DNA of 19,258 bases from a virus: UHGV virus genome UHGV-0045429; one strand, written 5' to 3'. Positions 6,542-19,258 of the stretch are shown here, piece after piece. How positions within the stretch are numbered: position 1 is the first letter of the stretch; every line of letters starts with the position of its first letter. Below the pieces are notes generated by a model. It worked only from the letters and a program-made list of their open reading frames with translations, made no database searches and was not told the origin of the DNA. The translations under genes and the position numbers were made by a program.

Positions 6542-6766
6542 GTGCTTAAAAAAGACGCAGTTATTTTTTTTGGAAGCAAATCAAAATTGGCAAAGGCTGC
6601 TGGTGTTGCTGCTTCATCAGTTTCTGTATGGGGCGACCTCGTGCCAGAGAAAAATGCGATGAGACTACAAATCGCTTCTGATGGTGCCCTGCGATATGAC
6701 CCCGAGGTCTATGACAAACATGCTAAAGCAAAACGGTCAGGAGAATTGAATGATGAAAATCAATGA
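6542..6766 (+). CDS. DicC/YdaS-like Cro-type regulator
   Basis: 74-aa ORF, GTG start with AAGGAG 8 nt upstream; MLKKDAVIFFGSKSKLAKAAG...GDLVPE...MRLQ...YDPEVYD closely matches E. coli DicC from memory; divergent from the repressor. Confidence 0.8.
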   Translation: MLKKDAVIFFGSKSKLAKAAGVAASSVSVWGDLVPEKNAMRLQIASDGALRYDPEVYDKHAKAKRSGELNDENQ

Positions 6767-7229
6767 GATCAAGTTACTGGCTATCGAGCTTGAAGAGTGG
6801 GCGATGAAGGATGGCAGGAAAGGGGGCTGGAAAAAGATTGTCCCACTGATTACCTCGCATCACTACGGTGATTTGCTGGATAGCCTGGCAGATATCGTGG
6901 ACCCGTCAGAGTATGTGCGCCGCCTGCATAACAACACGCAGATCATCCAGCGGGCATTTCGAAATGACACGCCGAACTATCGTGGTCAGGCAGCTGCGCT
7001 TGCGCCAGCAATCAGGGCTGCGATGGATGCAGAGCTGGCTGGTCAGCATGACTTACATAACCTGGTGGCCATTGCTAACCGCGAGTGCATCGAGGCGACC
7101 AGTGCGGTGCTGACTGGTAAGCCAATGCAGGTAATCCGCAAAGAAACGTCAGAGGCAATTCAGGCACTGGCCGATCTCATCCCCGGCGTCAGCATCCAGT
7201 TTAACCATATTGGTCCGCGCGCGGCGTAA
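6750..7229 (+). CDS. YdaT-like protein (third gene of the racR-ydaS-ydaT type immunity cluster)
   Basis: 159-aa ORF overlapping the DicC-like stop by 17 nt; AGGAG RBS; central NTQIIQRAFRNDTP...LAPAIRAAMD segment resembles the YdaT family as I recall it. Confidence 0.6.
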   Translation: MMKINEIKLLAIELEEWAMKDGRKGGWKKIVPLITSHHYGDLLDSLADIVDPSEYVRRLHNNTQIIQRAFRNDTPNYRGQAAALAPAIRAAMDAELAGQHDLHNLVAIANRECIEATSAVLTGKPMQVIRKETSEAIQALADLIPGVSIQFNHIGPRAA

Positions 7230-7241
7230 CAGGAGGCTCCC

Positions 7242-7484
7242 ATGCTTGCCCAGGAATTAGTAGACCGCATGAAAAATGCGATGAAGCACAAAGTACCGGC
7301 GGAGACAGTCGATCGCAGCGCTGAACTGATTCCGGGGATGAAATACCGCAACGAACGCGGACGCATGGTGACGGTAATGAGAGTTTCTCATCTTCGGGTT
7401 ATGTACCGATACGAAGGTTATCAGGACATCTGCGAGACAGGCCGGAGAGAGTTTGATTTGAAATTTAAGAAGGTGGAATTGTGA
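7242..7484 (+). CDS. Hypothetical phage protein (80 aa)
   Basis: ATG at 7242 with AGGAGG 5 nt upstream; tightly packed between the YdaT-like and HNH genes. Confidence 0.6.
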   Translation: MLAQELVDRMKNAMKHKVPAETVDRSAELIPGMKYRNERGRMVTVMRVSHLRVMYRYEGYQDICETGRREFDLKFKKVEL

Positions 7485-7486
7485 GT

Positions 7487-7840
7487 ATGAATTGCTGTGG
7501 CTGCCACAATCCTTTGGATGAGGACGAAATCTATAAACTTGCAGAGCGGTGCGGAATTTCGATCTGTGACCGTTGCGCGGGTAAGGTCGAACGCAGCTAT
7601 AACGAATGGCACGGTGGTCCTGGATATTTCCCCAAACCCCCTAAACACCCCCGCAAAAATATCTCACCGGGAGTGAGATTAAAAATTTATCGAAGGGATA
7701 AATACCGCTGTAAATATTGCGGCACCAGTGATGATCTCACCATTGATCATATTCAGCCTGTCTCTAAAGGCGGCGGAAATGAAGATGAAAATCTCCAGAC
7801 CTTATGTCGTGCCTGTAACCGCAGGAAGGGGGCGTCATGA
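7487..7840 (+). CDS. HNH endonuclease
   Basis: Cys-rich N-terminus plus H-N-H core ...DLTIDHIQPVSKGGGNEDENLQTLCRACNRRKG; ATG 7487 preferred over GTG 7481 because AGGTGGA lies 9 nt upstream. Confidence 0.8.
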   Translation: MNCCGCHNPLDEDEIYKLAERCGISICDRCAGKVERSYNEWHGGPGYFPKPPKHPRKNISPGVRLKIYRRDKYRCKYCGTSDDLTIDHIQPVSKGGGNEDENLQTLCRACNRRKGAS

Positions 7841-8772
7841 GCTCACTAATCAAGTTACTCGATCGCCCAGTGGCGTATCAACCAGCATTTGCACAGCTCA
7901 GGGCGGGAAAAGTGAAATCAGGCCCGTCGGCTGCTGTCCTGCTTTCCCAGTTCGTCTACTGGCATAACCGCATGGGCGGTGAGTGGATGTACAAGACGCG
8001 TGAAGACATAAAAAAAGAGACGGGGTTAAGCCGTGATGAGCAGGAAACAGCGAGAAAAAGACTGGTTGCTCTGGGGGTACTACAGGAAGAACTACGAGGG
8101 GTTCCTGCGACTGTACATTACAAAATTAATACCGGGCGTCTGGAGGTACTTTTGCTGGCTCCAGACCAGGCAGAATCACAGATGGGTGCAACGCCGCCAA
8201 CTAGAAAGCGGCAATCCCGCCAACTGGATGGCGGCAACACACCCAACAAGATGGCGGTAACCCCGCCAACAAGCAGGGGGGAATACCGCCAGCAAGATGG
8301 TGGTGATCCCGCCAACTTTCCTACAGGAGATTACACAGAGAGTACTCAGGAGATCACTCAAAGGGCCGGAGATGAATTTTCTGTGGATAACTTTTCTGAC
8401 GAGGACGTGAAATTTTCAGAGTGGTTCTTTGCTCGGGTCGTCGAGATGCATGAGCGAGCTGCTGAGTTTGACGGAACCATGTCACGCCCCGATGAACCTG
8501 ACTGGACTGAATGGGTGGGCGAGGTTCGCCTGCTGCGGGAAGAGCAGGGGTGCGATCACACGCAGATGCGCCGCATGGTTGAGCGCATTCAGGGGGATCC
8601 GTTCTGGTGCCCAAGGGTAAAAACCGCGCACGCCCTGCGGGACAAGTGGGCTGACCTGGTGGTGAGACTGTGCCCAGTGAGCTTGGCTGATCCGCCGCGA
8701 CAATCCACTTTCGACGATGAATATTACAAAAACGATTCTGAGTCCGCTGCGAAAGCAGGTTTCAGGATCTGA
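7837..8772 (+). CDS. Phage replication initiator (lambda O-like replisome organiser) with origin iterons inside the coding sequence
   Basis: 311-aa ORF, ATGA overlap with the HNH stop; N-terminal winged-helix-like segment (LLSQFVYWHNRMGGEWMYKTREDIKKETGLSRDEQETARKRLVALGVL); tandem DNA repeats in the middle of the gene encode the repetitive linker. Confidence 0.65.
   Translation: MSSLIKLLDRPVAYQPAFAQLRAGKVKSGPSAAVLLSQFVYWHNRMGGEWMYKTREDIKKETGLSRDEQETARKRLVALGVLQEELRGVPATVHYKINTGRLEVLLLAPDQAESQMGATPPTRKRQSRQLDGGNTPNKMAVTPPTSRGEYRQQDGGDPANFPTGDYTESTQEITQRAGDEFSVDNFSDEDVKFSEWFFARVVEMHERAAEFDGTMSRPDEPDWTEWVGEVRLLREEQGCDHTQMRRMVERIQGDPFWCPRVKTAHALRDKWADLVVRLCPVSLADPPRQSTFDDEYYKNDSESAAKAGFRI
8190..8320. 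repeat. Iteron-like direct repeats (putative replication origin)
   Basis: CCCGCCAAC at 8216-8224, 8262-8270 and 8308-8316 (plus CCGCCAAC at 8194-8201), each preceded by GATGG(C/T)GG at 8227, 8250 and 8295; unit about 22-24 bp; CCGCCA/TGGCGG gives internal dyad symmetry. Confidence 0.6.
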
Positions 8773-8800
8773 GAGAACTGAATTTAACCTGGAGAATTTT

Positions 8801-9463
8801 ATGGAAACCATTTTAGACGTACTGAAAGCGATGGAAAAAGCGACTGCCCGTGAAATTGCGGCGCGCATGAAAATTGAGCCGGCGGCGGTGATCGGGATGC
8901 TGCGTGAGCACGAAGAGCGTAATGAGGCTGTTCAGGCTAACGGGTACTGGAAAGTTGCCACCGGGGAAGTTAAATCACAGCCAAAAGCGATCAGTTCTTT
9001 CAGCAAAGCGCCGGTAAGTGTATCAGTCAGCGACGTCATCGCATTACTGGCGGAACATGGGCCACAGACATCCCTTGAGCTGGCAACACTGGCAGGTATT
9101 GAGTCAAAACGTGTGGCGCCAATGCTGACTCACCACATGACAAAAGGGCGGATCATCCGCGAAAAAGTAGGCAGCAAGTTTGTTTATTCGGTGCCGGCCA
9201 CTGCGTCAGTGAAAAACAAAAGCTCTGCACCACGGGAACCGGAAACATCAACACCACTGGTACCAGAAAAATCTGTCACTGAAATTGTTGAGGAAATCCC
9301 CGCTTTCGTCAGCCGTCCTGATGATCTGCTGATCCCAACGGTACGCGGTATCTCAAGTGAAATTCGGCGCACAAAAGCGAAGCTGGCTAACCTGGAAAAA
9401 CTTCGTGAAGCCGTTCGCAGCATTCGCAAACACGGCGCGCTGATGCAGGAGCTGGCGCAATGA
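8801..9463 (+). CDS. Hypothetical protein with two tandem winged-helix-like segments
   Basis: Start taken at METILDVLKAMEK (GGAG RBS); two similar blocks (ILDVLKAMEKATAREIAARMKIEPAAVIGML... and VIALLAEHGPQTSLELATLAGIESKRVAPML...). No Walker motif, so not a DnaC/P-type helicase loader. Confidence 0.6.
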   Translation: METILDVLKAMEKATAREIAARMKIEPAAVIGMLREHEERNEAVQANGYWKVATGEVKSQPKAISSFSKAPVSVSVSDVIALLAEHGPQTSLELATLAGIESKRVAPMLTHHMTKGRIIREKVGSKFVYSVPATASVKNKSSAPREPETSTPLVPEKSVTEIVEEIPAFVSRPDDLLIPTVRGISSEIRRTKAKLANLEKLREAVRSIRKHGALMQELAQ

Positions 9464-9684
9464 AACAGTCTGAGTTACCGCGCTGTCCGGCCTGCGGAAA
9501 TATGCCCGAATACGCGCTAAAGCCAAACCATATGGGATGGGTATGGGGTGGATTGAAATGTCCGTATGACCATTACCGCGTGAATTTGGATGGTCCAGCC
9601 GGTAGCCGCGTGCAGGCAGAAAAAAAGCTGGCGCCACAGTGGATTGAACTGGTCGAGAAAGCTAATCAGGAGAAATCAGCGTGA
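9460..9684 (+). CDS. Small zinc-ribbon protein, possibly Lar-type restriction alleviation family
   Basis: 74-aa ORF; AGGAG RBS; LPRCPACGN...GLKCPYDHY (C-x2-C ... C-x3-H) pattern. Family call is tentative. Confidence 0.5.
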   Translation: MKQSELPRCPACGNMPEYALKPNHMGWVWGGLKCPYDHYRVNLDGPAGSRVQAEKKLAPQWIELVEKANQEKSA

Positions 9685-10043
9685 AACCAACCTACGAAGA
9701 ACTGACAGTACAGCTCGCTAACGCCGAGAGCAAGTGCAGGGAGCTGGTGGTGGAATGTTCGACAATCAAAGCCATGAGCGATTGCCTGTCTGAAGAGCTG
9801 CGTGGTTATGAATCTGATGGGGCGTTTGAAGGACCGAAGATGCATCTACTGTGGTGGAAAGCAGAAACTCCCGCGACCGACGCTTTCCTGGCTGAAGTGC
9901 GGGCGCAGGTCCACAAGGAAGGTGCTCACTTTGTAGCAAATAGAATGCTGGCCGCCACTCTTTTTGTTTTCGTTATCCTCAATGCACCCGCATGTAACCC
10001 GCTTCGGCGGGTTAGCTTCTTCTATCTGAGATTTTGTTGCTAA
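9681..10043 (+). CDS. Hypothetical protein (N-terminal coiled-coil-like, hydrophobic C-terminus)
   Basis: GTG start with AGGAG 9 nt upstream, overlapping the previous stop. The C-terminal ~15 codons read through hairpin 9996-10013, so the 3' end may be a fusion artefact. Confidence 0.45.
   Translation: MKPTYEELTVQLANAESKCRELVVECSTIKAMSDCLSEELRGYESDGAFEGPKMHLLWWKAETPATDAFLAEVRAQVHKEGAHFVANRMLAATLFVFVILNAPACNPLRRVSFFYLRFCC
9996..10013 (+). terminator. Hairpin AACCCGC-TTCG-GCGGGTT (copy a of a repeated terminator-type stem-loop); weak U-tract
   Basis: Perfect 7-bp stem with tetraloop; identical 18-mer recurs at 17742-17759. Confidence 0.4.
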
Positions 10044-10205
10044 ACGCAGTCTTACCGTTCTATCTGCAGGCATTGAGTAACTAAGTTCAAATGTTACATT
10101 GATCACGTTTTTTAACGTCTCAAAACCTCATTGGTATTGAGTTCCTTTGTGGTAATGATTTTGTTGGATAAAATAGCCAATATCTCAAGGAGTAGGTAAC
10201 CACTA

Positions 10206-10559
10206 ATGATCAATGATGTTAAAAATGCAAAAATTGAAGAATATTTCACCGTTCTAAAAGAAAAGAGCAGACCTCCAAGCAAAGGTGGGAACACAAAGGC
10301 TCTGCATGCCCACTACATTAAAATTGATGGAATGTTATACAGTTTTCTCGCGTTCGGTTCTAAGCAATGGATTTTCAAAACCGACCGAGTATCATTTAAG
10401 TTCGAAATGAACGGCGAATACAGGAATATTCTCCGGGAATCCATTAGCACTATTGATAGCAATGGGGAAGTAGTAATCAGAGGGTTGCGTGGTTTTAGCA
10501 AGAAGATAAGGACTGCTGATACGCGTTTACCAGCATCCAGAAGGGAATGCAGGGATTGA
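10206..10559 (+). CDS. Hypothetical protein (117 aa) in AT-rich cargo cassette
   Basis: ATG at 10206 with AAGGAG upstream; AT-rich codon usage unlike the flanking phage core (by eye); no family recognised. Confidence 0.6.
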   Translation: MINDVKNAKIEEYFTVLKEKSRPPSKGGNTKALHAHYIKIDGMLYSFLAFGSKQWIFKTDRVSFKFEMNGEYRNILRESISTIDSNGEVVIRGLRGFSKKIRTADTRLPASRRECRD

Positions 10560-10712
10560 ATATGTAATTTGTGTCGAATTTGCAATCATTAGCTAGCAAA
10601 TTGAATAAGTAACATAATAATTTTCATGAATAATATGAATAAAAAACCAGGATGACATACTAGGTGTTTCCGGTATCTTATCTATATATTATTTACGTTC
10701 AAGTGACTTTAA

Positions 10713-10874
10713 ATGACTGGCCAGCAACTTACTGAGCTCGAAATCGCTTATGGTGGGGAAGCTTACTCAGATAATGAAATTGATGCGAAAACAGTAGCTA
10801 AATCACTAAAGGATGTTGAACATTCAATGTCAGTGCATTCAAACGCCCTTCAAAGCGACGCTGATAAGTCTTAA
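10713..10874 (+). CDS. Small acidic ORF (53 aa) below the ORF-track threshold
   Basis: ATG 10713 to TAA 10872-10874 (MTGQQLTELEIAYGGEAYSDNEIDAKTVAKSLKDVEHSMSVHSNALQSDADKS), ending directly before terminator b; weak RBS. Confidence 0.3.
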   Translation: MTGQQLTELEIAYGGEAYSDNEIDAKTVAKSLKDVEHSMSVHSNALQSDADKS

Positions 10875-10889
10875 AGTTCGTGTACTGCT

Positions 10890-10912
10890 AACCCGCTACG
10901 GCGGGTTTTTTT
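10890..10912 (+). terminator. Rho-independent terminator (copy b): AACCCGC-TACG-GCGGGTT plus T7
   Basis: Perfect 7-bp GC-rich stem, tetraloop, run of seven T. Confidence 0.75.
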
Positions 10913-10968
10913 ATGCCCCTTACCAATAAATAATTAACCTGAATTATTGTAAATTATTGAGGTTTGTT

Positions 10969-11607
10969 ATGGGTGGCATTTTCGATGAATCATGGTCTGA
11001 GCAATTTACTCAACGCGTTGAGGCTTTGCGTAAACTGGATGATCAGTCCGTTACTCAACCGCTTTTCAGAGAAAAAGCGGATCTGATTTTTACTCAAATG
11101 GCTGACCGTGTTCGTTCGCGTACGCGACAGCAGCTCGGAGAAATCGACGTTAGCGGGATAACATTTGATTACGCAATCCGCTATTACGTTAATCACGACA
11201 CTGGTGATCCGGTTCTGGATCACCTTGTGTCCAGGGTAGGGCCATTCTGTGACCAGATGAAGATCAGCACGGAGGCGTACGGCACAGCGGCGTTCTGCTG
11301 CGCGCTCATGATGTTGAAAGGCGAGTTGCGTATAGCGTATGCATTTTTCAGCATGCTGATGCGCCCGCTCGTTTCTGCGTACAGGTATAACACCGACGCG
11401 AAACGACGTGGCTCTGCTGGTGGGCGCCCGACAAATCCACTTAAAAACGAGGCACTGGAACTGGCGCGGGTATTTACAAAATCCTATCCTGATTCAACGA
11501 TGGTGGCTGTTGTTAACGCCGTCATTTCTGACCTTGAATCTCACTACGTTGGCACTCCGTCAGCACGCACAATAAAGCGCTGGATTCAGCAGGACCGGAA
11601 AAAATAA
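10969..11607 (+). CDS. Hypothetical protein with C-terminal resolvase-type HTH-like segment (putative DNA-binding regulator)
   Basis: ATG 10969 (GAGG RBS; the track start at 10957 is a TTG). C-terminal GGRPTNPLKNEALELARVF...TPSARTIKRWIQQ resembles the GRP-led HTH of serine recombinases, but no recombinase catalytic domain is present. Confidence 0.55.
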   Translation: MGGIFDESWSEQFTQRVEALRKLDDQSVTQPLFREKADLIFTQMADRVRSRTRQQLGEIDVSGITFDYAIRYYVNHDTGDPVLDHLVSRVGPFCDQMKISTEAYGTAAFCCALMMLKGELRIAYAFFSMLMRPLVSAYRYNTDAKRRGSAGGRPTNPLKNEALELARVFTKSYPDSTMVAVVNAVISDLESHYVGTPSARTIKRWIQQDRKK

Positions 11608-11614
11608 CCCCTCC

Positions 11615-11660
11615 GGACAAAACCTTCTTTTGTCGGCATAACCTGGTTTTGTCCGTTTTA
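11615..11660 (+). terminator. Terminator-like hairpin: GGACAAAACC ... GGTTTTGTCC followed by GTTTTATC
   Basis: 10-bp perfect inverted repeat (11615-11624 / 11645-11654) downstream of the 212-aa ORF. Confidence 0.5.
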
Positions 11661-11700
11661 TCATCAAAAAAAATACGTAGAATCCGTCTCACACTTTTTG

Positions 11701-11745
11701 TTGAGACATCTCCCGGATGAGGTGATACTGTTTATATATACAGTA
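11701..11745 (+). promoter_or_regulatory. SOS-regulated promoter: near-consensus LexA box TACTGTTTATATATACAGTA overlapping the -10 element
   Basis: CTG-N10-CAG at 11728-11743; 19/20 match to the E. coli LexA consensus TACTGTATATATATACAGTA; TTGAGA (-35, 11701-11706) and GATACT (-10, 11724-11729) with 17-bp spacing. Confidence 0.65.
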
Positions 11746-11773
11746 TTTGGTCTCTGAATTATCGGGAGATAAT

Positions 11774-11974
11774 ATGCAAATAACTAATGAATTAGTGCCT
11801 GGTGCCTCGGCCCACACAGGACCAGTTTTAATTCAACTGGTGGCGGGTGAAGTGCAAGGTGGCTTTATTTTAAGAGATGATGAATTTGTCACATCTATCT
11901 CCACACTAAATGAAACAAGAATTATGGCCGGATTAGACCCCGCGCCTTTTACCCGATCCCTAACTGATTTATAA
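11774..11974 (+). CDS. Small protein (66 aa) under the LexA box; candidate SOS-induced antirepressor
   Basis: ATG 11774 with GGGAGA RBS, 28 nt downstream of the LexA box; MQITNELVPGASAHTGPVLIQLVAGEVQGGF... No family recognised; function inferred from context only. Confidence 0.5.
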   Translation: MQITNELVPGASAHTGPVLIQLVAGEVQGGFILRDDEFVTSISTLNETRIMAGLDPAPFTRSLTDL

Positions 11975-12036
11975 TAATCACTCGCGAGCGTGAACAACTC
12001 GCAGCTGAGTAACACTGCGCCAACCGGAAATAAACG

Positions 12037-12351
12037 ATGGCGCGTAAAAAATCGTATATAACCAAAGCCGAGCAACAGCACCTCGATCGCGTAGCGTCGT
12101 TGGGTTGTTGTGTCTGCAAAAATCTTGGTTACCCCGACTCTCCAGCGGGGATTCATCATATCCGAACCGGGCAGGGTGCAAGCCAGCGCTCCAGCCATTT
12201 CGAAACTCTGCCGTTATGCGCTGCCCACCACCAGACGGGTGGCTATGGCATTGCTTATCACGCTGGCCCTGAGATATGGGCGAAAAAATACGGCACCGAA
12301 ACTGAGCTATTAATTCAGGTTACGTCAGATTTAAACGGGGACTGGTCATGA
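12037..12351 (+). CDS. YbcO-like nin-region protein (putative nuclease, Cys/His-rich)
   Basis: 104-aa ORF directly upstream of and overlapping rusA, as ybcO-rusA in DLP12; CCVCKN...HHIR...PLCAAHH metal-binding-like pattern. Confidence 0.6.
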   Translation: MARKKSYITKAEQQHLDRVASLGCCVCKNLGYPDSPAGIHHIRTGQGASQRSSHFETLPLCAAHHQTGGYGIAYHAGPEIWAKKYGTETELLIQVTSDLNGDWS

Positions 12352-12707
12352 CCCGTTACCCCGTAACTCCAATCGGCAAACCCCGAATGACAAGAGCCGA
12401 CAAATGGAAGCAGCGCCCGCCGGTGCTCCGTTATCGTGTTTTCTGCGACGAGGTGCGCCTGCATGAAATCGTTCTGCCTGAAAGCGGCGCCCACGTTATT
12501 TTTGTTCTGCCAATGCCAGCGAGCTGGAGCCAGAAAAAACGCGCCAGCATGAACGGACAGCCTCACCAGCAAAAACCGGATATAGACAACCTCACCAAAT
12601 CCCTCATGGATGCCATTTACGACGACGACGCCCACATTTGGGACGTCCGTGCATCAAAAATCTGGGGTGATGAAGGCGCGATTATTATTCAGGAGGGCAA
12701 GGCGTGA
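12348..12707 (+). CDS. rusA: RusA-family Holliday junction resolvase
   Basis: 119-aa ORF; ...KPDIDNLTKSLMDAIYDDDAHIWD... matches the RusA acidic catalytic region as I recall it. Confidence 0.8.
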   Translation: MTRYPVTPIGKPRMTRADKWKQRPPVLRYRVFCDEVRLHEIVLPESGAHVIFVLPMPASWSQKKRASMNGQPHQQKPDIDNLTKSLMDAIYDDDAHIWDVRASKIWGDEGAIIIQEGKA

Positions 12708-14245
12708 TGCCCTTAACATACGGATCCGTATGCAGCGGAATTGAGGCAGCGAGTGTGGCGTGGGAGGTATTGGGCTGGCGGCCGTCATGGTTTTCTCAGT
12801 TCGATCCGGAACACAATTACAAAAACGGTCCTGATTTCCCGTCTGCGGTGCTGGCGCATCACTGGCCGCACGTAAAAAACCTTGGCGATATGACAAAAAT
12901 CGCCGCAGCAATCCGGCTCGGAGAAATTGAAGCGCCCGACGTTCTGGTAGGTGGTACTCCCTGCCAGGCATTCAGCATTGCTGGACTGCGTAATGGCCTG
13001 ACGGATTCACGCGGCCAACTAACCCTCGCTTTTGTAGAACTGGTAAACGCAATTGATGAAAAACGAAGAGAACAGGGAAAACCACCCGTCATTGTCGTCT
13101 GGGAAAATGTCCCCGGAGTATTCAGCAGCAGAGATAACGCTTTCGGATGTTTTCTTGCAGGGCTTGCCGGCGAAAGCCGTGAACTGGAATCACCAGGGCG
13201 AAAATGGACAAACGCTGGTTATGTGCTGGGACCAGAAAGGGCTGTCTGCTGGCGAGTGCTCGACGCTCAATTTTTCGGAGTGGCCCAACGACGCCGCCGT
13301 GTGTTTGTTATCGCAAGCGCTAGAGGGGATATCGATCCCGCAAAAATACTTTTTGAGTCCGAAGGCATGCGCCGGGATACTCCGCCGCGCAGAGAAACGG
13401 GGGAGATCGTTGCCGCCCTTATTGCAAACGGCGTTGGAGTGTGTGGCGCAGACGATAATCAGGGGCAGGCAGGGCACCTGATTGCCATGGCGCACGGACA
13501 GGCAGGGGCAGAAATTAAAACGGATGATTCCGCGCCTACGCTTACCTGTAACCATGAAGCGCCTATTGTTTTTAGCTGTAATGGACACGCATCGTTTACG
13601 CCGGGAGTCAGTGCTCTGCGAACTAAATCAGGCGCAGACCATGAAACGCTGGCTGTTCATGGTACGCAAGATCCCGACACTTTAAAGAACCTGGCACATA
13701 CGCTGGGTCGAAACCATGGGCAAGAGAATGCCGTTGCCTACTGTCTCCAGCATGCACAAATTAACCGGGCAGATAACGCTGGCCCACAGGGTAAAGGATG
13801 GCAAGAAGAATGCAGATTCACTCTGGATTCTCGTTCTTGTGCTGATGCAGTCGCTTATGCCTTCAAGGCCGGGCAGGGCGCAAAAGCGGGTGGCATTGGC
13901 TGGGCAGAGGAACAATCCCCGACACTGACGGCCGCCAGCAGTGGATCGAATTTATCCCCTTCAGTGGTGAAAAATATGGCCGTTCGCCGCCTTACTCCTG
14001 TCGAATGTGAACGCCTGCAGGGCTTCCCCGATAACCACACTTTAATCCCCCGTGATAAGCGTAAGCAGATTACTGCTGATGAGTACGCATACGCGCGCCA
14101 CCACAACCCAAAAATAACCGCAGAGGAAGCCTACAGGCTGGCGAAGGATGGTCCGCGCTATAAGGCCATTGGTAACAGCATGGCCGTACCGGTTATGCGC
14201 TGGATAGGAAGGCGAATCTCTAACGCTCTGGAGCAGACAATATGA
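12707..14245 (+). CDS. Orphan DNA (cytosine-5) methyltransferase
   Basis: Motif I-like YGSVCSGIEAA, motif IV GGTPCQAFSIAG, motif VI VVWENVPG, QRRRRVF, C-terminal RRLTPVECERLQGFPDNHT and GNSMAVPV; large variable region between. AGGAGGG RBS; start overlaps the rusA stop. No adjacent restriction endonuclease ORF. Confidence 0.9.
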   Translation: MPLTYGSVCSGIEAASVAWEVLGWRPSWFSQFDPEHNYKNGPDFPSAVLAHHWPHVKNLGDMTKIAAAIRLGEIEAPDVLVGGTPCQAFSIAGLRNGLTDSRGQLTLAFVELVNAIDEKRREQGKPPVIVVWENVPGVFSSRDNAFGCFLAGLAGESRELESPGRKWTNAGYVLGPERAVCWRVLDAQFFGVAQRRRRVFVIASARGDIDPAKILFESEGMRRDTPPRRETGEIVAALIANGVGVCGADDNQGQAGHLIAMAHGQAGAEIKTDDSAPTLTCNHEAPIVFSCNGHASFTPGVSALRTKSGADHETLAVHGTQDPDTLKNLAHTLGRNHGQENAVAYCLQHAQINRADNAGPQGKGWQEECRFTLDSRSCADAVAYAFKAGQGAKAGGIGWAEEQSPTLTAASSGSNLSPSVVKNMAVRRLTPVECERLQGFPDNHTLIPRDKRKQITADEYAYARHHNPKITAEEAYRLAKDGPRYKAIGNSMAVPVMRWIGRRISNALEQTI

Positions 14246-14877
14246 TGACCCCACGACAAAAACGAGCTCACAAATCAGCACTGGAACATGCGGCAGCCGC
14301 ACCGAATAAGCGCTGGCTGGGGAAATCAATACTGCTCACCGGTATTCAGTCAGCCTGGATCAAATCGCTACTCTGTGTTTGGGGTGAAAGTATTCGCGGT
14401 GGAATGGCACCAGGAACGCCGAAAGGCCACGCGTGCTGGCGGTCGCTAAAGGGTATGCGCTGGTCCGATAAATCGCTCGAGCGTTTTACAGAGGCACTGA
14501 CTCAGGCGAGAGGTGAGGGATTTAAAGGCGAGCTGGCGTTAAAACGTGCACACGCGATTCTCTGGCCCACAAAACCGGTTAGCGTTATCGACGAGGCTAT
14601 AACGGACGATGATGCAGATTTTATGGAAGCGTGCGTGCTGGAGGCGTTTGAAACAACGGATCCGGTTTACGTTATTGGGGTGAGCTACTACACGACGAGG
14701 AAAAAAATCTCGGACCTGACCCGGGATATTCAGCAGATAGCCCCCAGGCTGACTCCGGATGAGGCAAGAAAGCGCGTGCGCTGGTGTGTTGAAATATTCG
14801 GGGCGCGCGTGTATCTGGAGGCACGCCGTCAGTTACACGCTGATTTACAGAAATCAGAATCTGGCGGGAAAATATGA
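14242..14877 (+). CDS. Putative late-gene antiterminator (Q-like); assignment from position and size
   Basis: 211-aa ORF overlapping the MTase stop; GGAG RBS; sits where Q lies in lambdoid genomes (after the nin/rusA block). Family membership not confirmed by any motif. Confidence 0.45.
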   Translation: MMTPRQKRAHKSALEHAAAAPNKRWLGKSILLTGIQSAWIKSLLCVWGESIRGGMAPGTPKGHACWRSLKGMRWSDKSLERFTEALTQARGEGFKGELALKRAHAILWPTKPVSVIDEAITDDDADFMEACVLEAFETTDPVYVIGVSYYTTRKKISDLTRDIQQIAPRLTPDEARKRVRWCVEIFGARVYLEARRQLHADLQKSESGGKI

Positions 14878-15037
14878 TTTTTGAAATAGAAAATAAGCCG
14901 AATTAATTCAATAAAAATATATAATTACAAATGCCAACATGATTGCATTTGTGTTGGTTATAGTAATTGATTTGTTATATGAAAATGAAATGCTTATAAC
15001 AATCCGCGAAGAATAAAATTAATATATCGAGGACATA

Positions 15038-15334
15038 ATGAAAGAACTATCAGCAAAAGATTTACTACATAAATATTCAAGCCCGCTTGATTCAGTAAGC
15101 CTATTTAACGCAATGCATCTCGCTGGTTTAATTGAAGTAAAGGAATATATTTCCTCGACAGGAAGTGGTGAGATTAAGACCTATCGATCGCTAACTGAGA
15201 GCGGTTTGAAGTATGGGATCAATAAAAGATCTAGTTATAGTGATGCAACTGACTTAAAGTTTTTTCCTTCAAACTTCCATGAATTGTTGGTATTGGTATC
15301 AAAGGAGATTTTGAAGCATTCAGAGATGCTTTAA
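15038..15334 (+). CDS. Hypothetical protein (98 aa) in AT-rich cargo
   Basis: ATG 15038 with GAGGA RBS; preceded by a 160-bp AT-rich promoter-like region directly after the Q-like gene. Confidence 0.5.
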   Translation: MKELSAKDLLHKYSSPLDSVSLFNAMHLAGLIEVKEYISSTGSGEIKTYRSLTESGLKYGINKRSSYSDATDLKFFPSNFHELLVLVSKEILKHSEML

Positions 15335-15415
15335 GGTTTTGATTGAAATCGATGTAGTGGAAAAGAAAACCTCGGCCTGGCAACCGGGGTTCTATAGCGC
15401 GCAAACTTTACCTTT

Positions 15416-15628
15416 TTAGCGTGATTTTTTTCGTTTGAAAAACTCGTAAATTTCGATGCCAACAATAGCGATGGCGTAAAAAGGCCAAAGAAAAGAGGTT
15501 CTAACCGTATCCAGCAGGTCAAATTCCATATCGAGTATTCGATCCGCATGAACCAACAGTGCGAACATCACGATAAATCCCGCGACGTTTAAGGCTAGGT
15601 AAAGATAGAGACTCATGGCTAAATCCAT
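15416..15628 (-). CDS. Small hydrophobic (membrane) protein, convergent with the 98-aa ORF
   Basis: 70-aa ORF; two predicted hydrophobic helices (LYLYLALNVAGFIVMFALLV and FLWPFYAIAIVGIEI) and basic C-terminus KRKKSR; weak RBS. Confidence 0.45.
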   Translation of the reverse strand: MDLAMSLYLYLALNVAGFIVMFALLVHADRILDMEFDLLDTVRTSFLWPFYAIAIVGIEIYEFFKRKKSR

Positions 15629-15812
15629 TTATTAAGGTTTGCTGTGAGTCTACGTGCGATAACCACACAATTAAAAATTGGTATTACAGATCGATTTATC
15701 TTTATCGATCGTTGAAAACGATCGTCATGACACAAATAGCTTAGTGATTGATTGTTATTTAATCAGTTGGAGCCAATTATTTAGTAATTAGTGCTTATTT
15801 TATTAAGCGGCA

Positions 15813-15840
15813 TTGAAAACGAGCCATATTTATTGATAAT
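15813..15840 (+). promoter_or_regulatory. Sigma70-type promoter: TTGAAA (-35), 16-bp spacer, GATAAT (-10)
   Basis: TTGAAA at 15813-15818 and GATAAT at 15835-15840; predicted start about 15847. Confidence 0.4.
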
Positions 15841-15847
15841 TACCTCA

Positions 15848-15935
15848 TGCTTGGCAGAGCTGCGCCACGATGGCAGCGACGATAAGCGAACAATTTGAAC
15901 ATAACGAGAACCCCGCCAGCGCGGGGTTTTTGCTT
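15848..15935 (+). ncRNA. Candidate ~90-nt small RNA or late-leader transcript (promoter to intrinsic terminator, no credible ORF)
   Basis: Only a 12-codon ORF without RBS lies between the promoter and terminator; internal GCTGC...GCAGC stem. Entirely a sequence-based prediction. Confidence 0.3.
15909..15935 (+). terminator. Rho-independent terminator: CCCCGC-CAGC-GCGGGG plus T5
   Basis: Stem 15911-15916 / 15921-15926 followed by TTTTT at 15927-15931. Confidence 0.7.
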
Positions 15936-15946
15936 TCCGGCGATCC

Positions 15947-15989
15947 GACAGGGGTATTCGCGAACGTGCTACGGCACAGTACCCCTGTC
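15947..15989. repeat. 10-bp perfect inverted repeat GACAGGGGTA ... TACCCCTGTC (23-nt spacer)
   Basis: Arms at 15947-15956 and 15980-15989, immediately downstream of the terminator. Confidence 0.45.
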
Positions 15990-16175
15990 AGATCGTCGTT
16001 ATGGTTACTTCTATATGTCAGTTTAGGCCGACATCATTTGTGCCTATCCTTCTGGTCTATTGGATGAGTCAAACGTACCTTGAATGAGGATTGTAGGTGC
16101 CAGCCCGTAAGCCCTGCGGCATGGGGCTTAGTCGAAAAAACACCTCTTTTTTGCAACTTTTTATCACGTTTTCCC

Positions 16176-16223
16176 GTGACAAGATCCTGTTTACTGTTAG
16201 AATCACTCCACATGATTCATGTG
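16176..16223 (+). promoter_or_regulatory. Promoter of the two-gene operon with operator-like palindrome
   Basis: GTGACA (-35, 16176-16181), 16-bp spacer, extended -10 TGtTAGAAT (16195-16203); palindrome CACATG-ATT-CATGTG at 16209-16223 at the predicted start site. Confidence 0.4.
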
Positions 16224-16280
16224 ATGTGAATCTTTTAAAAAAAATAAAAACACATCTATTTCAACGAGTAAGCTCAAAAA

Positions 16281-17045
16281 ATGCAGGCTCAACCCAAGAC
16301 TAAACACCAAGAGTTGGTCGAGACGCTATCATTATATATAGACTCGCGAACCCCGTTAGAAGAACCTCTTTTGGGTGAAATCTTTCGCGATATCAATAAA
16401 CAGTCCGGTGCGTCTCGTGCGTATCTCATGGCTTTGTGGATGGAAGTTCAGAACAGACATGATGAGACAGTGGAATGGTATCTAGAGGCGATAGCTACTT
16501 CTGGTGAGCTCGCTTCTGTTGTCGCAGGTAACTATCTGAGTTATCTGAGTTGCTCAGCGCACAATCTTTTTCACAGAACAGAATTGTTCCGATTGGTAGA
16601 TATATATTGTACTAAGCGGATAAGAAAAATGGCCAGGAATGCAGCATTTTGCATGGGAAATGACCGGCTTGTTAACCGATTCACTGTGATGATGAAGGCT
16701 TTACTCGACGGCCAAGAGCGGGAAGAAATTGAGCGTGAGGGGGCAAAAATGGTGGAAGCTATTGTTACTTTTAAAGAAGCCACTAAGCTAACTTCATCTG
16801 AAATCCAGCAGTTGTGTGATTCAGCCGAACAGATTGCAAATAGCCACGGCGTGAATTGCGCTGGTGTTGAATATTTTCTGAGTGGTGGATATGACAACGC
16901 CATAATCCTATTTGCAGAAACCAGCGACGCTAGCACACTTACCACTATGAACATGGAACTCATAGGTTTGCTTGCTGATGATGCCTATATCGATCGTCCA
17001 TTTACCTCATGGTTTAAGAGCGCAGATATGAAGGATAGGATCTAA
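16281..17045 (+). CDS. Hypothetical protein (254 aa), first gene of cargo operon; no recognisable catalytic motif
   Basis: ATG 16281; stop TAA overlaps the start of the downstream gene (TAATG); lower GC than the phage core by eye; no Walker or nucleotidyltransferase motif. Confidence 0.7.
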   Translation: MQAQPKTKHQELVETLSLYIDSRTPLEEPLLGEIFRDINKQSGASRAYLMALWMEVQNRHDETVEWYLEAIATSGELASVVAGNYLSYLSCSAHNLFHRTELFRLVDIYCTKRIRKMARNAAFCMGNDRLVNRFTVMMKALLDGQEREEIEREGAKMVEAIVTFKEATKLTSSEIQQLCDSAEQIANSHGVNCAGVEYFLSGGYDNAIILFAETSDASTLTTMNMELIGLLADDAYIDRPFTSWFKSADMKDRI

Positions 17046-17446
17046 TGAGCGTATCAGGTCAAGATTTCATTGATTTTGCAGAGAAATGTCTCGATTTCGG
17101 TGATGAGATAGGCTTCAGGAACGTAGTTGGACGCTCCTACTATGGTGTTTACCATGAGATCTGCAGTAAACTTGAGCATTGCTATGTATTGACCTCTCAT
17201 GAGGGGGTGCGTCAGTATCTTATGAGCTCTTCACAGTGTAAAAATGAGCCGTTTGATAAAGCCGGGCTGAGGAGGATTGGTGTTTTCCTTCATAGTCTTC
17301 ACGTGCAAAGAAAGTGGGCTGATTACACACTTCAGCGCGATTTGGTTAAAACTGATGCTGAGTCGGCGCTCAATACTGCGAAACAAGTAATGGATGAAAT
17401 TAAGGCGTTGCATGAGGCAGTTTACCCTCCTCAGCCAGCAGCATAA
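17045..17446 (+). CDS. HEPN-like protein (133 aa) with N-terminal R-x6-H motif; candidate RNase toxin/effector
   Basis: GRSYYGVYH (R30 at 17132-17134, H37 at 17153-17155) fits the HEPN Rx4-6H signature; AGGA RBS; translationally coupled to the upstream gene; followed by terminator c. Confidence 0.65.
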   Translation: MSVSGQDFIDFAEKCLDFGDEIGFRNVVGRSYYGVYHEICSKLEHCYVLTSHEGVRQYLMSSSQCKNEPFDKAGLRRIGVFLHSLHVQRKWADYTLQRDLVKTDAESALNTAKQVMDEIKALHEAVYPPQPAA

Positions 17447-17460
17447 CTCACCAATTATTG

Positions 17461-17488
17461 AAACCCGCTACGGCGGGTTTTCTTTTTC
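17461..17488 (+). terminator. Rho-independent terminator (copy c): AACCCGC-TACG-GCGGGTT plus T-rich tail
   Basis: 18-mer identical to copy b (10890-10907); followed by TTTTCTTTTTC. Confidence 0.75.
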
Positions 17489-17541
17489 GCTTCATCAATT
17501 CCTGCTACGATTCCCTGTCTTTTACTGATGGGGATAGGGAT

Positions 17542-17709
17542 ATGAAGAAAGTTCTTGTTGTTTTATTGGTGTCACTTTTCTCACTGACAGCAACGGCAGC
17601 AAACAAGCCATGCTCAGGTAAGAAAGGCGGAATATCGCATTGTTCGGGTGAAAAGTTTGTTTGCAATGATGGCTCTATCAGCAAGTCTAAGAAGGTTTGT
17701 CAGAAATAG
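17542..17709 (+). CDS. Small secreted Cys-rich, Lys-rich protein (55 aa) with signal peptide
   Basis: Start at MKKVLVVLLVSLFSLTATAA (signal-peptide-like) then NKPCSGKKGGISHCSGEKFVCNDGSISKSKKVCQK (4 Cys). The track ORF from 17458 reads through terminator c and is an over-extension. Confidence 0.55.
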   Translation: MKKVLVVLLVSLFSLTATAANKPCSGKKGGISHCSGEKFVCNDGSISKSKKVCQK

Positions 17710-17740
17710 TTATTAATAAATAGCACTCGCCATCAAAATC

Positions 17741-17763
17741 AAACCCGCTTCGGCGGGTTTTTC
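17741..17763 (+). terminator. Rho-independent terminator (copy d): AACCCGC-TTCG-GCGGGTT plus T5
   Basis: 18-mer identical to copy a (9996-10013). Confidence 0.75.
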
Positions 17764-17828
17764 ACTCTCTAACGGATATGTTATTTTCATGCAATAAGAG
17801 CGATTAGTAAGATGCTGCTGGGGAGAAC

Positions 17829-17990
17829 ATGGATTCAACGGACGACGAAGAGAAACGCATAGAATTTGAAAAATTCATCATTGAAAGGTTTGGTGATACG
17901 GTTGACCTTCGCAGGGCGAAGCATGGCAATAACGGATATATTTCATGGGAAGCGGCGGTTGCTTGGGTTGTCTGGCAGGAGCGCTCATAG
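17829..17990 (+). CDS. Small ORF (53 aa) below the ORF-track threshold
   Basis: ATG 17829 to TAG 17988-17990, GGGAG 3 nt upstream; MDSTDDEEKRIEFEKFIIERFGDTVDLRRAKHGNNGYISWEAAVAWVVWQERS. Reads more coherently than the overlapping 83-aa track ORF. Confidence 0.4.
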   Translation: MDSTDDEEKRIEFEKFIIERFGDTVDLRRAKHGNNGYISWEAAVAWVVWQERS

Positions 17991-18319
17991 CACCATGAAA
18001 CAACGTCTACCTCTAGCGGGCGCTGATTTATTATGGCGCTGCCCGGAGCGTCCCGTCATTCACTATGGACTCCCACTTGGCAACGTCGTTTTAGAATTTG
18101 ATTTTGGTCCGCTATGAGCTGTGAGTTCAACTGATGGACGCAACACACTTATTGAACCGCTCTGCAGGATGGCTCGGAACCTGGATTATTATTCCAGAGA
18201 TTAGCGCTGGCTTTTTTCTCGCTTTCAGGCAGCAGAATGAGGCCAATTTTTAACACCCGACCATGGCTTGCACGGCCGGGTAATGGCTAAGAATGCGCGT
18301 AAACAAAAGGTTATGCCAC

Positions 18320-19258
18320 TTATGTGCCTAAATGTTTATTAAAGAATGGAATAATCTCCGATAGCGCTTGTGCCGTCGCTTCCGGACGATCATACAGATC
18401 ATAGTGAGATACCCCTTTCACAACCTGCAGCGTCTTCTCAACGGAGCGCGCGCGCTGATAAAGTTCATAACCGTCGCGATAAGAACCAAAACCACCAGGA
18501 ACATCGCCAATAACAATATGTAATGGTTGTATCAGTAGCTTTTCCGTAAAGGCAAAAGCATCCCAGTTTAAGGCCGGTGCGGTGCTGGTAAGTCGCAGTT
18601 TGTTAGGCGAGCCTGGCTTTTGCCCGCGCGGGGTCGTGTAGTAATCAACGGCCTCAATGAGGTCGATATCGTTGATGTTCGCATTCGCCAACGCTTCTGC
18701 ATTGTCAGGAATATAACCGACAACAAGAGCAGCGGCTCCCCGAGCTTCAGCAGTACGCTGTTTACCCAGCGCGTCAATCGTTCTGAGCGCGGCATCCGGA
18801 CTGGAATCCCCTTCACGCATAATGCGCCCATAATTGGCGGCAACCACAGTGGCAACGGCTTTGAAACGGTGATCAATGGTAGCGGCGCTAACGGCATATC
18901 CACCGCCGCCACAAACGCCTAAAACCCCAATACGATCTTCATCCACGTAGGCTAAAGTCACCAGATAGTCTATCGCGCAGCGAAAGTCTTCCACGCGGAT
19001 GGATGGATTTTCGCTAAAGCGTGGCTCACCCCCGCTTTCACCCTGGGTAGAGGCATCGAAAGCAAGAGTAATAAATCCAGCTTCAGTTAGCTTCTGGCCG
19101 TAGACTGCGCCAGATGTCTGTTCTTTACAACTGCTGATAGGATGGGCGCAAACAATCGCCGGGTATTTCTGGTTGGCATCAAATCCCTCAGGTAAGCGGA
19201 GAGTGGCGGCAACTTGCCAGCTGTTGTGCCGGAATGAAACGAGTTGTTCATGAGACAT
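18320..19258 (-). CDS. Alpha/beta hydrolase of the dienelactone-hydrolase type (Cys nucleophile)
   Basis: 312-aa ORF; nucleophile elbow GVLGVCGGGGYA (G-x-C-x-G-G). The start codon lies at the last three bases of the window, so the upstream region is not visible. Confidence 0.8.
   Translation of the reverse strand: MSHEQLVSFRHNSWQVAATLRLPEGFDANQKYPAIVCAHPISSCKEQTSGAVYGQKLTEAGFITLAFDASTQGESGGEPRFSENPSIRVEDFRCAIDYLVTLAYVDEDRIGVLGVCGGGGYAVSAATIDHRFKAVATVVAANYGRIMREGDSSPDAALRTIDALGKQRTAEARGAAALVVGYIPDNAEALANANINDIDLIEAVDYYTTPRGQKPGSPNKLRLTSTAPALNWDAFAFTEKLLIQPLHIVIGDVPGGFGSYRDGYELYQRARSVEKTLQVVKGVSHYDLYDRPEATAQALSEIIPFFNKHLGT

Follow-up and report, generated by a model that had tools for sequence, protein, structure and literature searches.

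The right-hand part of the window, as we call the whole 19,258-nucleotide stretch of viral DNA analyzed here (UHGV-0045429), is probably the end of a defective Rac/lambda-like prophage of about 17.4 kb (746-18119) that lies beside phoP and that appears to have been truncated and then grafted. The locus would therefore reflect ordinary prophage decay combined with mosaic exchange rather than cargo put in place of late genes by design. The original prediction had read the DNA 3' of a Q-like antiterminator gene as a late region replaced by cargo; comparison with relatives points to truncation and grafting instead, and the late genes seem to have been cut off because phage homology stops at 18119 beside the end of an IS30-family element. 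The element has genes for integrase, cI/Cro, replication, RusA and Q, and late genes are absent from the window and from the next 10 kb, which would suit a defective prophage.

All open reading frames named in the original prediction were found where it had placed them, and its claim that no late genes follow Q in the window was upheld. 3' of the Q-like gene, the window lacks genes for holin, endolysin and spanin as well as for terminase, head and tail proteins. Scans of the main open reading frames with Pfam, PHROGs, NCBIfam and PADLOC identified no lysis or packaging genes, eight smaller or alternative-frame open reading frames (seven extra ones and an extended ydcA frame) gave no lysis or packaging matches, and tblastn of the window with four holin types, four endolysins, a spanin, terS and TerL of relatives returned none. 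The region 3' of Q is AT-rich, with a GC content of 0.37-0.44 compared to 0.53-0.55 in the phage core. Between the gap that separates phoP from the integrase gene and the right-hand part of the window, no shared repeat exceeded 11 nt, which we judged to be chance rather than an att site, and no relevant tRNA genes or Rfam families were found in the window. A search of E. coli genomes and GenBank phages for a near-identical relative gave module-sized matches only.

The comparison with relatives that had been proposed for locating the break placed it at 18119, where homology to a related prophage (L010) ends; non-phage homology (L055) begins at approximately 18162. The features at this junction are as follows.

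18120-18165, plus strand: terminal fragment (inverted-repeat end) of an IS30-family element, 46 bp, 97% identity, at the phage/non-phage junction
18320-19258, minus strand: alpha/beta hydrolase gene (Pfam hydrolase families), the first non-phage gene, convergent with late transcription

The IS30 sequence is an end fragment only; it was recognized by matches of 59-62 nt, at 95-97% identity, to the terminus of an annotated IS30-family pseudogene copy in E. coli. The hydrolase gene is followed by adh_short, DLH, LysR and AaeAB-like genes, and the next 10 kb rightward contain non-phage genes only. An alternative is that the prophage is split rather than truncated. A large hydrolase-to-AraC block would have been inserted, transposed or rearranged in the nin region, and the DinI-nin-Q-lysis-morphogenesis half would lie further right, giving an element with two Q modules that may be inducible. 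Exactly such a layout is found in a sister strain type (L003), in which late genes lie 9.3 kb beyond the same junction, holin, lysozyme and spanin genes come after the second Q, and the breaks in the 53-aa and DinI modules map close together, about 0.9 kb from each other in E. coli PSJ-22; IMG genome 2876508654, called as two neighboring viral regions, is arranged in the same way. In addition, a 345-aa gene at the far end of the window's 10-kb flank is mobile-element cargo elsewhere. However, the window genome and most sister contigs diverge from the L003 flank after LysR, over at least 7 kb the flank is free of phage genes and carries efflux and regulator genes of chromosomal appearance, and in L055, a related lineage, the hydrolase block lies beyond the tail-fiber end of a prophage, beside metabolic genes, as expected of DNA outside a prophage. 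We therefore consider a split prophage unlikely, and even if it were correct, at least 11 kb of convergent genes would still separate the late promoter from the late genes. The 345-aa gene module was found in other contexts in metagenome loci; with this gene as anchor, the only match was a cluster representative on a 1.9-kb contig. An exact 38-mer from the rightward walk was absent from the viral and metagenome collections, and the sole match of an 80-aa fragment of a 246-aa gene was a Rosenbergiella homolog.

Truncation followed by grafting, the reading that we prefer, also accounts for the mosaic structure to the left of the junction, which involves the following features.

9751-17461, plus strand: variant-specific segment (nin genes, RusA, methylase, Q, late promoter and the 254-aa/133-aa gene pair) with flanks common to variant B
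17460-17489, plus strand: terminator hairpin AAACCCGCTACGGCGGGTTT with U-tract, the putative joint of the Q segment with an older remnant (dG -14.9 kcal/mol, z -4.2)
17542-17709, plus strand: ydcA-family moron encoding a secreted Cys-rich peptide of 55 aa with a signal peptide (NF007463, phrog_6000)
17741-17765, plus strand: terminator hairpin after ydcA, a module boundary (dG -12.8 kcal/mol, z -5.9)
17829-17990, plus strand: 53-aa open reading frame, a nin-region module that precedes DinI in relatives

Against three sister loci (L002, L003 and L005), the window is 98% identical over 8781-9750, has no counterpart over 9751-17461 and is 99.8% identical from 17462. This last position is exactly where homology to the window begins in variant-B strains and in a prophage of E. 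coli KMi029. The ydcA gene is flanked by hairpins on both sides; an E. coli prophage has, in its nin region, a cassette with 91% identity to 17462-17762, and a homology block with E. coli PSJ-22 begins at 17742. The ydcA product matched NF007463 with an E-value of 9.5e-27 and 92.6 bits compared to a cutoff of 93, and the L003 copy (99.8% DNA identity over 17462-19258) is tagged PF27300 YdcA. The 53-aa region shows 83% DNA identity to the PSJ-22 prophage, where it lies upstream of DinI. The order ydcA, 53-aa open reading frame, DinI is found in five loci (L216, L247, L250, L253 and L256), including a relative with the same integrase (L216) in which both genes lie 5' of DinI-nin-Q. In all 22 interpretable IMG/VR loci both precede the antiterminator, and only here do they follow it; because none of these 22 loci places them 3' of Q, their position in the window looks accidental. 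Judged by their arrangement in relatives, ydcA and the 53-aa open reading frame are early-region (nin) morons joined to the Q segment at the terminator hairpin 17462-17481. The prophage of L055 was tried as an intact ancestor at the same locus and rejected; it has only the ydcA module in common with the window.

These relationships suggest a sequence of events. An IS30-family element may have landed in the interval from the 53-aa module to DinI; most of this element, together with the phage DNA next to it, may then have been lost by deletion. At a later stage, a second lambdoid phage would have contributed the 7.7-kb segment 9751-17461 by recombination, with one crossover in shared replication-region DNA (8781-9750) and the other in the 20-bp terminator hairpin. 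Short terminator hairpins could thus be exchange points that shuffle morons between phages and remnants, and early-region morons can therefore land by accident under the control of a late promoter.

The grafted segment carries a Q-like gene and, 3' of it, a conserved module.

14242-14877, plus strand: putative Q-like late antiterminator gene, 211 aa, with a start that overlaps the stop of the C5 methylase gene
15813-15840, plus strand: predicted late promoter, equivalent to PR' (TTGAAA, 16-nt spacer, GATAAT; consensus match 10 of 12)
15845-15938, plus strand: conserved leader with an intrinsic terminator (stem 15905-15932 and U-tract); the terminated transcript would be about 85-90 nt long
15947-15989, plus strand: second conserved hairpin, after the leader terminator (dG -25.5 kcal/mol, z -4.5)

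As had been proposed, the 211-aa protein is very probably a Q-type late antiterminator, given its position and the module downstream. The gene order in genome, phage and IMG/VR loci of relatives runs from RusA, DUF968 and methylase genes through the Q-like gene to holin, lysozyme and terminase. Members of the protein family are always found at the Q position and are always followed by the same promoter-leader-terminator module (105 of 105 loci, comprising 25 of 25 genome loci and 80 of 80 IMG/VR loci), which in relatives precedes the lysis and terminase genes. The module spans 15813-15938 in the window, 935 nt 3' of Q; inserts of 0.4-4 kb between Q and the promoter occur in about 20% of loci, the window included. 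Both promoter hexamers are conserved in the 25 genome loci, and transcription would start near 15847.

The conserved leader sequence, approximately 190 nt, exceeds the Q-like protein itself in conservation. Its DNA identity across genera is 78-97%, and it is 92% identical to the sequence directly 3' of the Q homolog of Citrobacter phage Chris1. The terminator (dG -20.0 kcal/mol, z -3.4) keeps its stem through changes of A-U to G-C and G-U, and the stem of the second hairpin is invariant in 23 loci apart from one compensatory change. By analogy, the leader may be the equivalent of lambda 6S/tR', and it probably holds Q-binding and pause elements. A permissive Rfam scan of the leader matched no family, IsrK included. 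A second leader copy suggested by Logan contig breaks at 15915-15930 was rejected; the breaks coincide with the palindromic terminator.

A different role for the 211-aa protein, as a sigma-region-4-like activator or alternative-sigma-like factor for late genes with the leader itself acting as a regulatory RNA, seems very improbable to us. An activator-dependent promoter would be expected to show poor -35 and -10 elements, whereas all 105 loci have a Q-type signature, in which a strong, covarying terminator comes within about 60-90 nt downstream of a near-consensus sigma-70 promoter. Moreover, the single best structural match of the protein model is Q21 in its RNA polymerase-engaged form, which is consistent with antitermination.

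If it is a Q-type antiterminator, the protein matches none of the three recognized Q families, PF06530, PF03589 and PF06323 (PMC9388147). It had no Pfam match to PF06530 (the Q21 family) at E <= 0.1 and no sequence match to Q21 in the PDB by phmmer or by a profile of 50 sequences. No match was found to PF03589 (the Q-lambda family, with its zinc-binding motif), a search in which the L010 antiterminator, as positive control, matched 7ubm_Q with an E-value of 1e-50. PF06323 (the Q82 family) likewise gave no Pfam match, and hhalign of the family alignment against three PF06323 members returned a probability of 0.1%. A BFVD fold search with the Q model found nothing significant. The exact protein is found in only two contigs of the collection, and its family, of about 200 aa, is widespread in Enterobacterales prophages. 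We speculate that these proteins form a fourth, uncatalogued Q family or a remote branch of Q21, that the terminated leader RNA of about 85-90 nt acts as a prophage small RNA comparable to StxS or IsrK and that superinfecting phages of this family switch on the 254-aa/133-aa pair, a combined proposal that is rather improbable. This poorly catalogued family is the most interesting part of the locus. Proteins now listed as hypothetical, which make up a large family in prophages of Citrobacter, Enterobacter, Klebsiella, Salmonella, Kluyvera, Pectobacterium and others, could be annotated as late antiterminators together with a precisely defined promoter-leader-terminator module, which would extend the three recognized families and offer structural biologists a new test case.

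The original prediction also suggested that the genes that follow Q, in units delimited by terminators, could be under late antitermination control if the Q-like protein is functional. This depends on where each gene lies relative to the late promoter.

15038-15334, plus strand: 98-aa open reading frame, weak PHROG matches only (phrog_6486, E 1e-5), GC 0.37
15416-15628, minus strand: gene for a 70-aa small membrane protein, convergent with the 98-aa open reading frame and 5' of the late promoter
16176-16203, plus strand: predicted own promoter of the 254-aa/133-aa cassette (GTGACA, 16-nt spacer, TAGAAT, extended -10 TG; consensus scan)
16281-17446, plus strand: two-gene moron encoding proteins of 254 aa (16281-17045) and 133 aa (17045-17446), with overlapping genes

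The 98-aa and 70-aa genes form an AT-rich insert of 935 nt between Q and the late promoter and, on this map, are not downstream cargo. A 98-aa homolog, 75% identical, occupies the same position in L163, and L012, L040 and 13 of 80 IMG/VR loci carry 70-aa homologs (62-68% identity) in the interval from Q to the late promoter, on the reverse strand. This unit is upstream of the late promoter and therefore could not be driven by Q antitermination, which removes it from the claim. The three terminators to which the original prediction pointed are real, each a hairpin with a U-tract (z -3.4 to -5.9; none of 200 shuffles folds as well), but the one at 15909-15935 ends the late leader and does not close the 98-aa/70-aa unit. 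Support for them comes from folding and conservation because a consensus terminator scan alone gave no excess (4 found compared to 3.8 expected in shuffles). Q control is plausible for the units 3' of 15938, with the qualification that the 254-aa/133-aa pair appears self-sufficient.

The suggestion that the genes following Q are morons was borne out for this pair and for ydcA, which have terminators, are AT-rich and vary in map position. The 254-aa and 133-aa proteins belong to phrog_17809 (E 4e-53) and phrog_5176 (E 2e-35), two families without an assigned function, and the two genes stay together in seven IMG/VR prophages. The -35 element and the TGTTA(G/A)AAT element of the cassette promoter are invariant in 7 of 7 copies. 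The cassette occupies two map positions: 3' of a Q-lambda-type antiterminator, or ahead of a Q82-type Q within the nin region. Having a promoter and a terminator to itself, two map positions and atypical GC, the cassette is, to judge from its layout, a self-contained moron with an invariant promoter of its own and therefore has no need of Q. The 254-aa protein had no tblastn match in GenBank phages. The label 'HEPN-like' given to the 133-aa protein was not supported by Pfam HEPN families (E <= 0.1), PADLOC or PDB sequences, and its C-terminal R-K-W-A-D-Y lacks the His of the Rx4-6H motif; a single-sequence AF2 model was unusable (pLDDT 42).

Under the preferred reading, the late promoter would yield a short terminated RNA in the resting state, and the morons would run from their own promoters. 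Q, promoter, leader and terminator are intact, and read-through by Q-modified polymerase is therefore mechanistically reasonable. If Q were produced, or came from a superinfecting phage with a Q of the same family, transcription could read through 15938, 17481 and 17760, raising expression of the 254-aa/133-aa pair, ydcA and the 53-aa open reading frame and continuing into the hydrolase operon in the antisense direction. This unit would not include the 98-aa and 70-aa genes. The cI-like repressor lacks an S24 cleavage domain, which makes induction by the SOS response, as originally suggested, doubtful.

One interpretation, already contained in the original prediction, is that selection has domesticated this arrangement, so that Q and the late promoter sense derepression or a phage Q in trans and switch on ydcA and the 254-aa/133-aa pair, there a candidate defense or toxin-type system. 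The intact Q, promoter, leader and terminator match the family consensus, the cassette lies directly 3' of the terminator as stx does in Stx phages (PMC6266700, PMC7547250), and the strong conservation, throughout the family, of the leader and of the likely Q-binding region makes cross-activation by a heterologous Q plausible. Nevertheless, we regard domestication as distinctly improbable. The variant is found in one genome and one sequencing run only, and neither selection nor spread is therefore apparent; the cassette brings an invariant promoter with it and is also found in the nin region, away from any late promoter; and no PADLOC defense-system model meaningfully matched it or any other cargo protein.

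Truncation and grafting of a prophage have parallels in known systems. Morons, in the concept of Hendrix and Juhala, are reportedly units that bring a promoter and a terminator of their own and separate genes that are neighbors in relatives. The 254-aa/133-aa pair and ydcA resemble lambdoid morons in their flanking hairpin terminators, AT-richness and varied map positions, the pair also in its conserved promoter, and nothing essential is different. The same hairpin sequence of about 20 bp doubles as an exchange joint. The cryptic lambdoid prophages of E. coli K-12 (Rac, DLP12 and Qin) are IS-truncated and retain Q homologs. Like them, the window element has kept its integrase and early genes, seems to have lost its late genes, carries an IS scar at the break and appears to be a remnant that exchanged segments with other phages; it differs in its Citrobacter-like host (according to nearest matches), its Q family and its integration site, phoP|purB. 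Such exchange is illustrated by phage 434B, which acquired cryptic-prophage DNA (PMC9119081). The Salmonella Gifsy-1 AntQ-IsrK locus has a Q-like gene, a terminated short RNA, small genes and then lysis genes (PMC4825925); the first three would follow in the same order here, whereas the leader is not of the Rfam IsrK family. Stx prophages carry stx between Q/PR'-tR' and the lysis genes and make the StxS small RNA by early termination (PMC7547250, PMC6266700). As in these prophages, a moron directly follows the late terminator, where Q read-through would boost it, and the late promoter is expected to be active in lysogens, giving a short terminated RNA (PMC7547250, PMC6266700); unlike in these prophages, no lysis genes lie 3' in the window, the cargo has its own promoter and activity of the leader RNA in trans is conjecture. 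Compared to the late switch of lambda, phage 21 and phage 82, for which the general mechanism of Q antitermination has been described (PMC9388147), the window has a Q without a match to the three recognized families, a second hairpin after the terminator and an insert before the promoter, but it shares a Q gene at the end of the nin region followed by a strong constitutive-type promoter, a short leader ending in an intrinsic terminator and, in relatives, lysis genes downstream.

Prophages lacking from one strain and present in another locate the element. In strains with an identical PhoP protein (L021, L028 and L029), purB directly adjoins phoP, and prophages with the same integrase occupy the phoP-purB site in further strains with identical PhoP, which indicates that the window is a prophage integrated between phoP and purB. 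The integrase gene is followed by a cI-like repressor, Cro, a YdaT-like gene, replication genes, a RecA-dependent nuclease, RusA, a C5 methylase and a 211-aa ORF. Landmarks of the region are as follows.

1-675, minus strand: phoP, at the left edge of the window
746-2035, minus strand: integrase gene, adjoining phoP
14242-14877: 211-aa Q-like ORF, after the C5 methylase gene
18120-18165: inverted-repeat end of an IS30-family element, identified by sequence match
18320-19258, minus strand: alpha/beta hydrolase gene, right of the region studied

The cI-like repressor (6047-6463, 138 aa) is HTH-only, without an S24 peptidase domain, and its direct cleavage in the SOS response is unlikely. A 634-aa ORF (2531-4435, minus strand) had no match in a Pfam scan and carries the precomputed collection tag YdfE_N/YdfE_C (Qin-prophage-like). 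In the early-right region, an AT-rich interval (10001-11000, GC 0.37-0.39) overlaps 117-aa and 216-aa ORFs without a family match, which are probably further morons.

The original prediction held that late genes had been replaced by stacked cargo units that could be under Q control. Its observation is confirmed: all of its ORFs and terminators were found, and no lysis or morphogenesis function turned up when the main ORFs were scanned against Pfam, PHROGs, NCBIfam and PADLOC. A further eight ORFs, smaller or in an alternative frame (seven additional ones and the extended ydcA frame), likewise lacked such functions, and tblastn searches of the window with relatives' holins, endolysins, a spanin and terminases gave no match. 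GC content is 0.37-0.44 across this region, compared to 0.53-0.55 for the core of the phage. Support for the interpretation is partial. This is the end of an ordinary prophage that has decayed and become mosaic; the points that merit further work are a Q family absent from the catalogs and the highly conserved control module that goes with it.

The mosaic structure is evident from contigs that share the flanking hydrolase. An identical hydrolase protein occurs in 24 contigs, and the arrangement of the window was found in its own genome (L004, 100% identical) and in one sequencing run. The other places shown among these contigs carry variant B, in which genes for a dNTP pyrophosphohydrolase, DUF2946 and a TonB-dependent receptor are followed by ydcA. 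The window and variant B are 98% identical over 8781-9750, unrelated over 9751-17461 and 99.8% identical from 17462 to the end. The break at 17462 lies exactly within a hairpin, AACCCGCTACGGCGGGTT; in one E. coli prophage this hairpin also borders the ydcA cassette, and in a second one it borders the 53-aa module. Only two contigs in the whole collection carry the exact Q protein, suggesting recent acquisition of the 7.7-kb Q-bearing segment by exchange.

Relatives also show where ydcA (17542-17709) and the 53-aa ORF (17829-17990) normally reside. In prophage L216, whose integrase is 98% identical, replication genes are followed in order by ydcA, 53-aa ORF, DinI, nuclease, methylase, RusA, Q-like gene, leader, holin, lysozyme and spanin. 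The 22 IMG/VR loci with recognizable neighbors all have ydcA upstream of the antiterminator. Both genes therefore belong to the early-region morons, and by this comparison their position downstream of the late promoter is peculiar to the window. Morons are indeed stacked and late genes missing in the window, as predicted, but ydcA and the 53-aa ORF are displaced early-region genes.

At the right end, the match to the E. coli PSJ-22 prophage is lost at 18119, from where PSJ-22 itself runs on towards DinI. From approximately 18162 on, the match is to non-phage DNA of L055, a related lineage, where this DNA adjoins the hydrolase gene and the neighbors are metabolic genes; a search for a second IS end found none. 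The simplest reading is that an IS30-family element inserted between the 53-aa module and DinI and that a deletion with one end within the IS followed. The phage/IS junction is common to all 24 contigs, which makes it older than the A/B exchange. The 10-kb right flank contains genes for the hydrolase, a short-chain dehydrogenase, a DLH hydrolase, LysR, a 293-aa protein, an AaeAB-like efflux operon, AraC, and 345-aa and 246-aa proteins, and purB is not the neighbor on this flank in the window's genome. The 345-aa gene (L004 436-1782) is a discrete 1.35-kb mobile module, found elsewhere in a P4-like integrase/DUF927 island (L221) and, in L220, beside DUF1367 within the nin region of a prophage; because it is mobile-element cargo elsewhere, the right flank is itself mosaic.

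A less probable alternative, to which we give a minor but appreciable share of belief, is that the prophage is split and that its remaining half lies further right in the window's genome. In the variant-B sister strain L003, and also in IMG genome 2876508654, the flanking block diverges after LysR and ends after 9.3 kb at the DinI module, beyond which L003 has Rem, a nuclease, RusA, a second Q-like gene, leader, holin, lysozyme and spanin, for a total of about 30 kb of phage DNA. On this gene order, the L003 prophage is split rather than truncated. Its non-phage block (9801-18786 of the reverse complement; hydrolases, LysR, an ars operon and a racemase) lies between the 53-aa module and DinI and starts with the same IS30-family end fragment; the prophage is otherwise full-length. 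Whether split in this way or truncated by IS insertion and deletion, at least 11 kb devoid of late genes lie ahead of the window's late promoter, and the genes that come next are convergent with it.

The 211-aa protein has no Pfam or NCBIfam match and thus falls outside the three recognized Q families, PF06530, PF03589 and PF06323 (PMC9388147). PHROGs assigns it to phrog_753, "anti-termination protein Q-like" (E 4e-54). We found 282 homologs; the 120 listed all lack a Pfam domain, and every source-named one among them is called hypothetical. The strongest evidence for Q identity is map position: in the annotatable loci among 23 genome loci from many Enterobacterales genera, Citrobacter phage Chris1, an E. 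coli prophage and IMG/VR prophages, the homolog sits after RusA/DUF968/methylase and ahead of holin, endolysin, spanin and terminase. An AlphaFold model from a 50-sequence alignment was of moderate confidence (pLDDT 66), better at residues 76-206, and with this model the top Foldseek probabilities were Q21 entries with non-significant E-values. Profile comparison with Q82-type proteins gave no match, and membership in the Q-lambda family is ruled out by sequence. The protein is very probably a late antiterminator, and we regard the family as putative antiterminators that form either a fourth Q family or a remote relative of Q21.

A 155-nt unannotated match in phage Chris1 led to a conserved module, which in Chris1 begins about 30 nt past the Q homolog and in the window has these elements.

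15813-15840: near-consensus late promoter (TTGAAA, 16-nt spacer, GATAAT)
15845-15938: leader DNA, highly conserved across homologous loci
15905-15932: stem of an intrinsic terminator (dG -20 kcal/mol)
15947-15989: second hairpin, directly 3' of the late terminator (dG -25.5 kcal/mol)

The module lies 3' of the Q homolog in 25/25 loci from genomes, phage and E. coli and in 80/80 IMG/VR loci, with a median gap of 51 nt between the Q stop codon and the -35 element. Across genera, leader DNA is 78-97% identical, compared to only 54-76% for the Q-like protein, and no Rfam family matches the leader. Pairing in the terminator stem is preserved where A-U pairs are replaced by G-C or G-U. The second hairpin is very stable; its stem is the same across 23 loci apart from a single compensatory change, and it would be transcribed only upon read-through of the late terminator.

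In the window, 935 nt separate the Q-like gene from the promoter and hold the 98-aa ORF and a reverse-strand 70-aa membrane-protein gene (15416-15628). Gaps longer than 300 nt occur in 16 of the 80 IMG/VR loci; 13 of these hold a 70-aa gene homolog and one holds a 98-aa gene homolog. Where this small membrane-protein gene is present (also L012, a further locus, 6950-7141), the typical gap is 488 nt. The closest Q relative, prophage L226 (85% identity), has a YecR moron in this position; its nin region (3766-6126) carries an AAA_15 ATPase and DUF4435 gene that look like a defense-type pair.

Directly beyond the module is the 254/133-aa gene pair (16281-17446), also found in seven IMG/VR prophages with boundaries at approximately 16108-17492 in window positions. 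In two of these prophages the pair comes after a Q-lambda-type antiterminator; in at least two others its place is the nin region, before a Q82-type Q. The promoter of the pair (GTGACA, 16-nt spacer, TGTTAGAAT) is unchanged in all seven copies, and a strong terminator closes the pair, which by these features is a textbook moron. The HEPN label proposed for the 133-aa protein found no support in Pfam, PADLOC or a PDB sequence search, and a single-sequence structure model was unusable.

The evidence shows that the Q-like gene, late promoter, leader and terminators are intact in the window, that 254/133 has an autonomous promoter, and where the module boundaries lie. Transcription from 15813 would be constitutive and stop near 15935, with a predicted RNA of about 85-90 nt (about 15847 to 15932-15938) in uninduced cells. 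With the Q-like protein present, it would read through all three terminators (at 15938, 17481 and 17760), increasing expression of 254/133, ydcA and the 53-aa ORF and continuing antisense into the hydrolase operon. Q control of the cargo is thus plausible for the units beyond the late terminator and impossible for the 98-aa and 70-aa genes, which lie upstream of the promoter. Of the proposed triggers, SOS induction is doubtful, given an HTH-only repressor; conservation of the leader makes it plausible that a superinfecting phage of a related kind could activate the unit in trans. Cargo or small RNAs at the late-terminator position have precedents in stx/StxS (PMC7547250, PMC6266700) and AntQ/IsrK (PMC4825925), and the leader might itself act as a prophage-encoded small RNA, as StxS and IsrK do. 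In its arrangement of promoter, leader and terminator, the module matches the anatomy of lambda PR'-qut-tR'.
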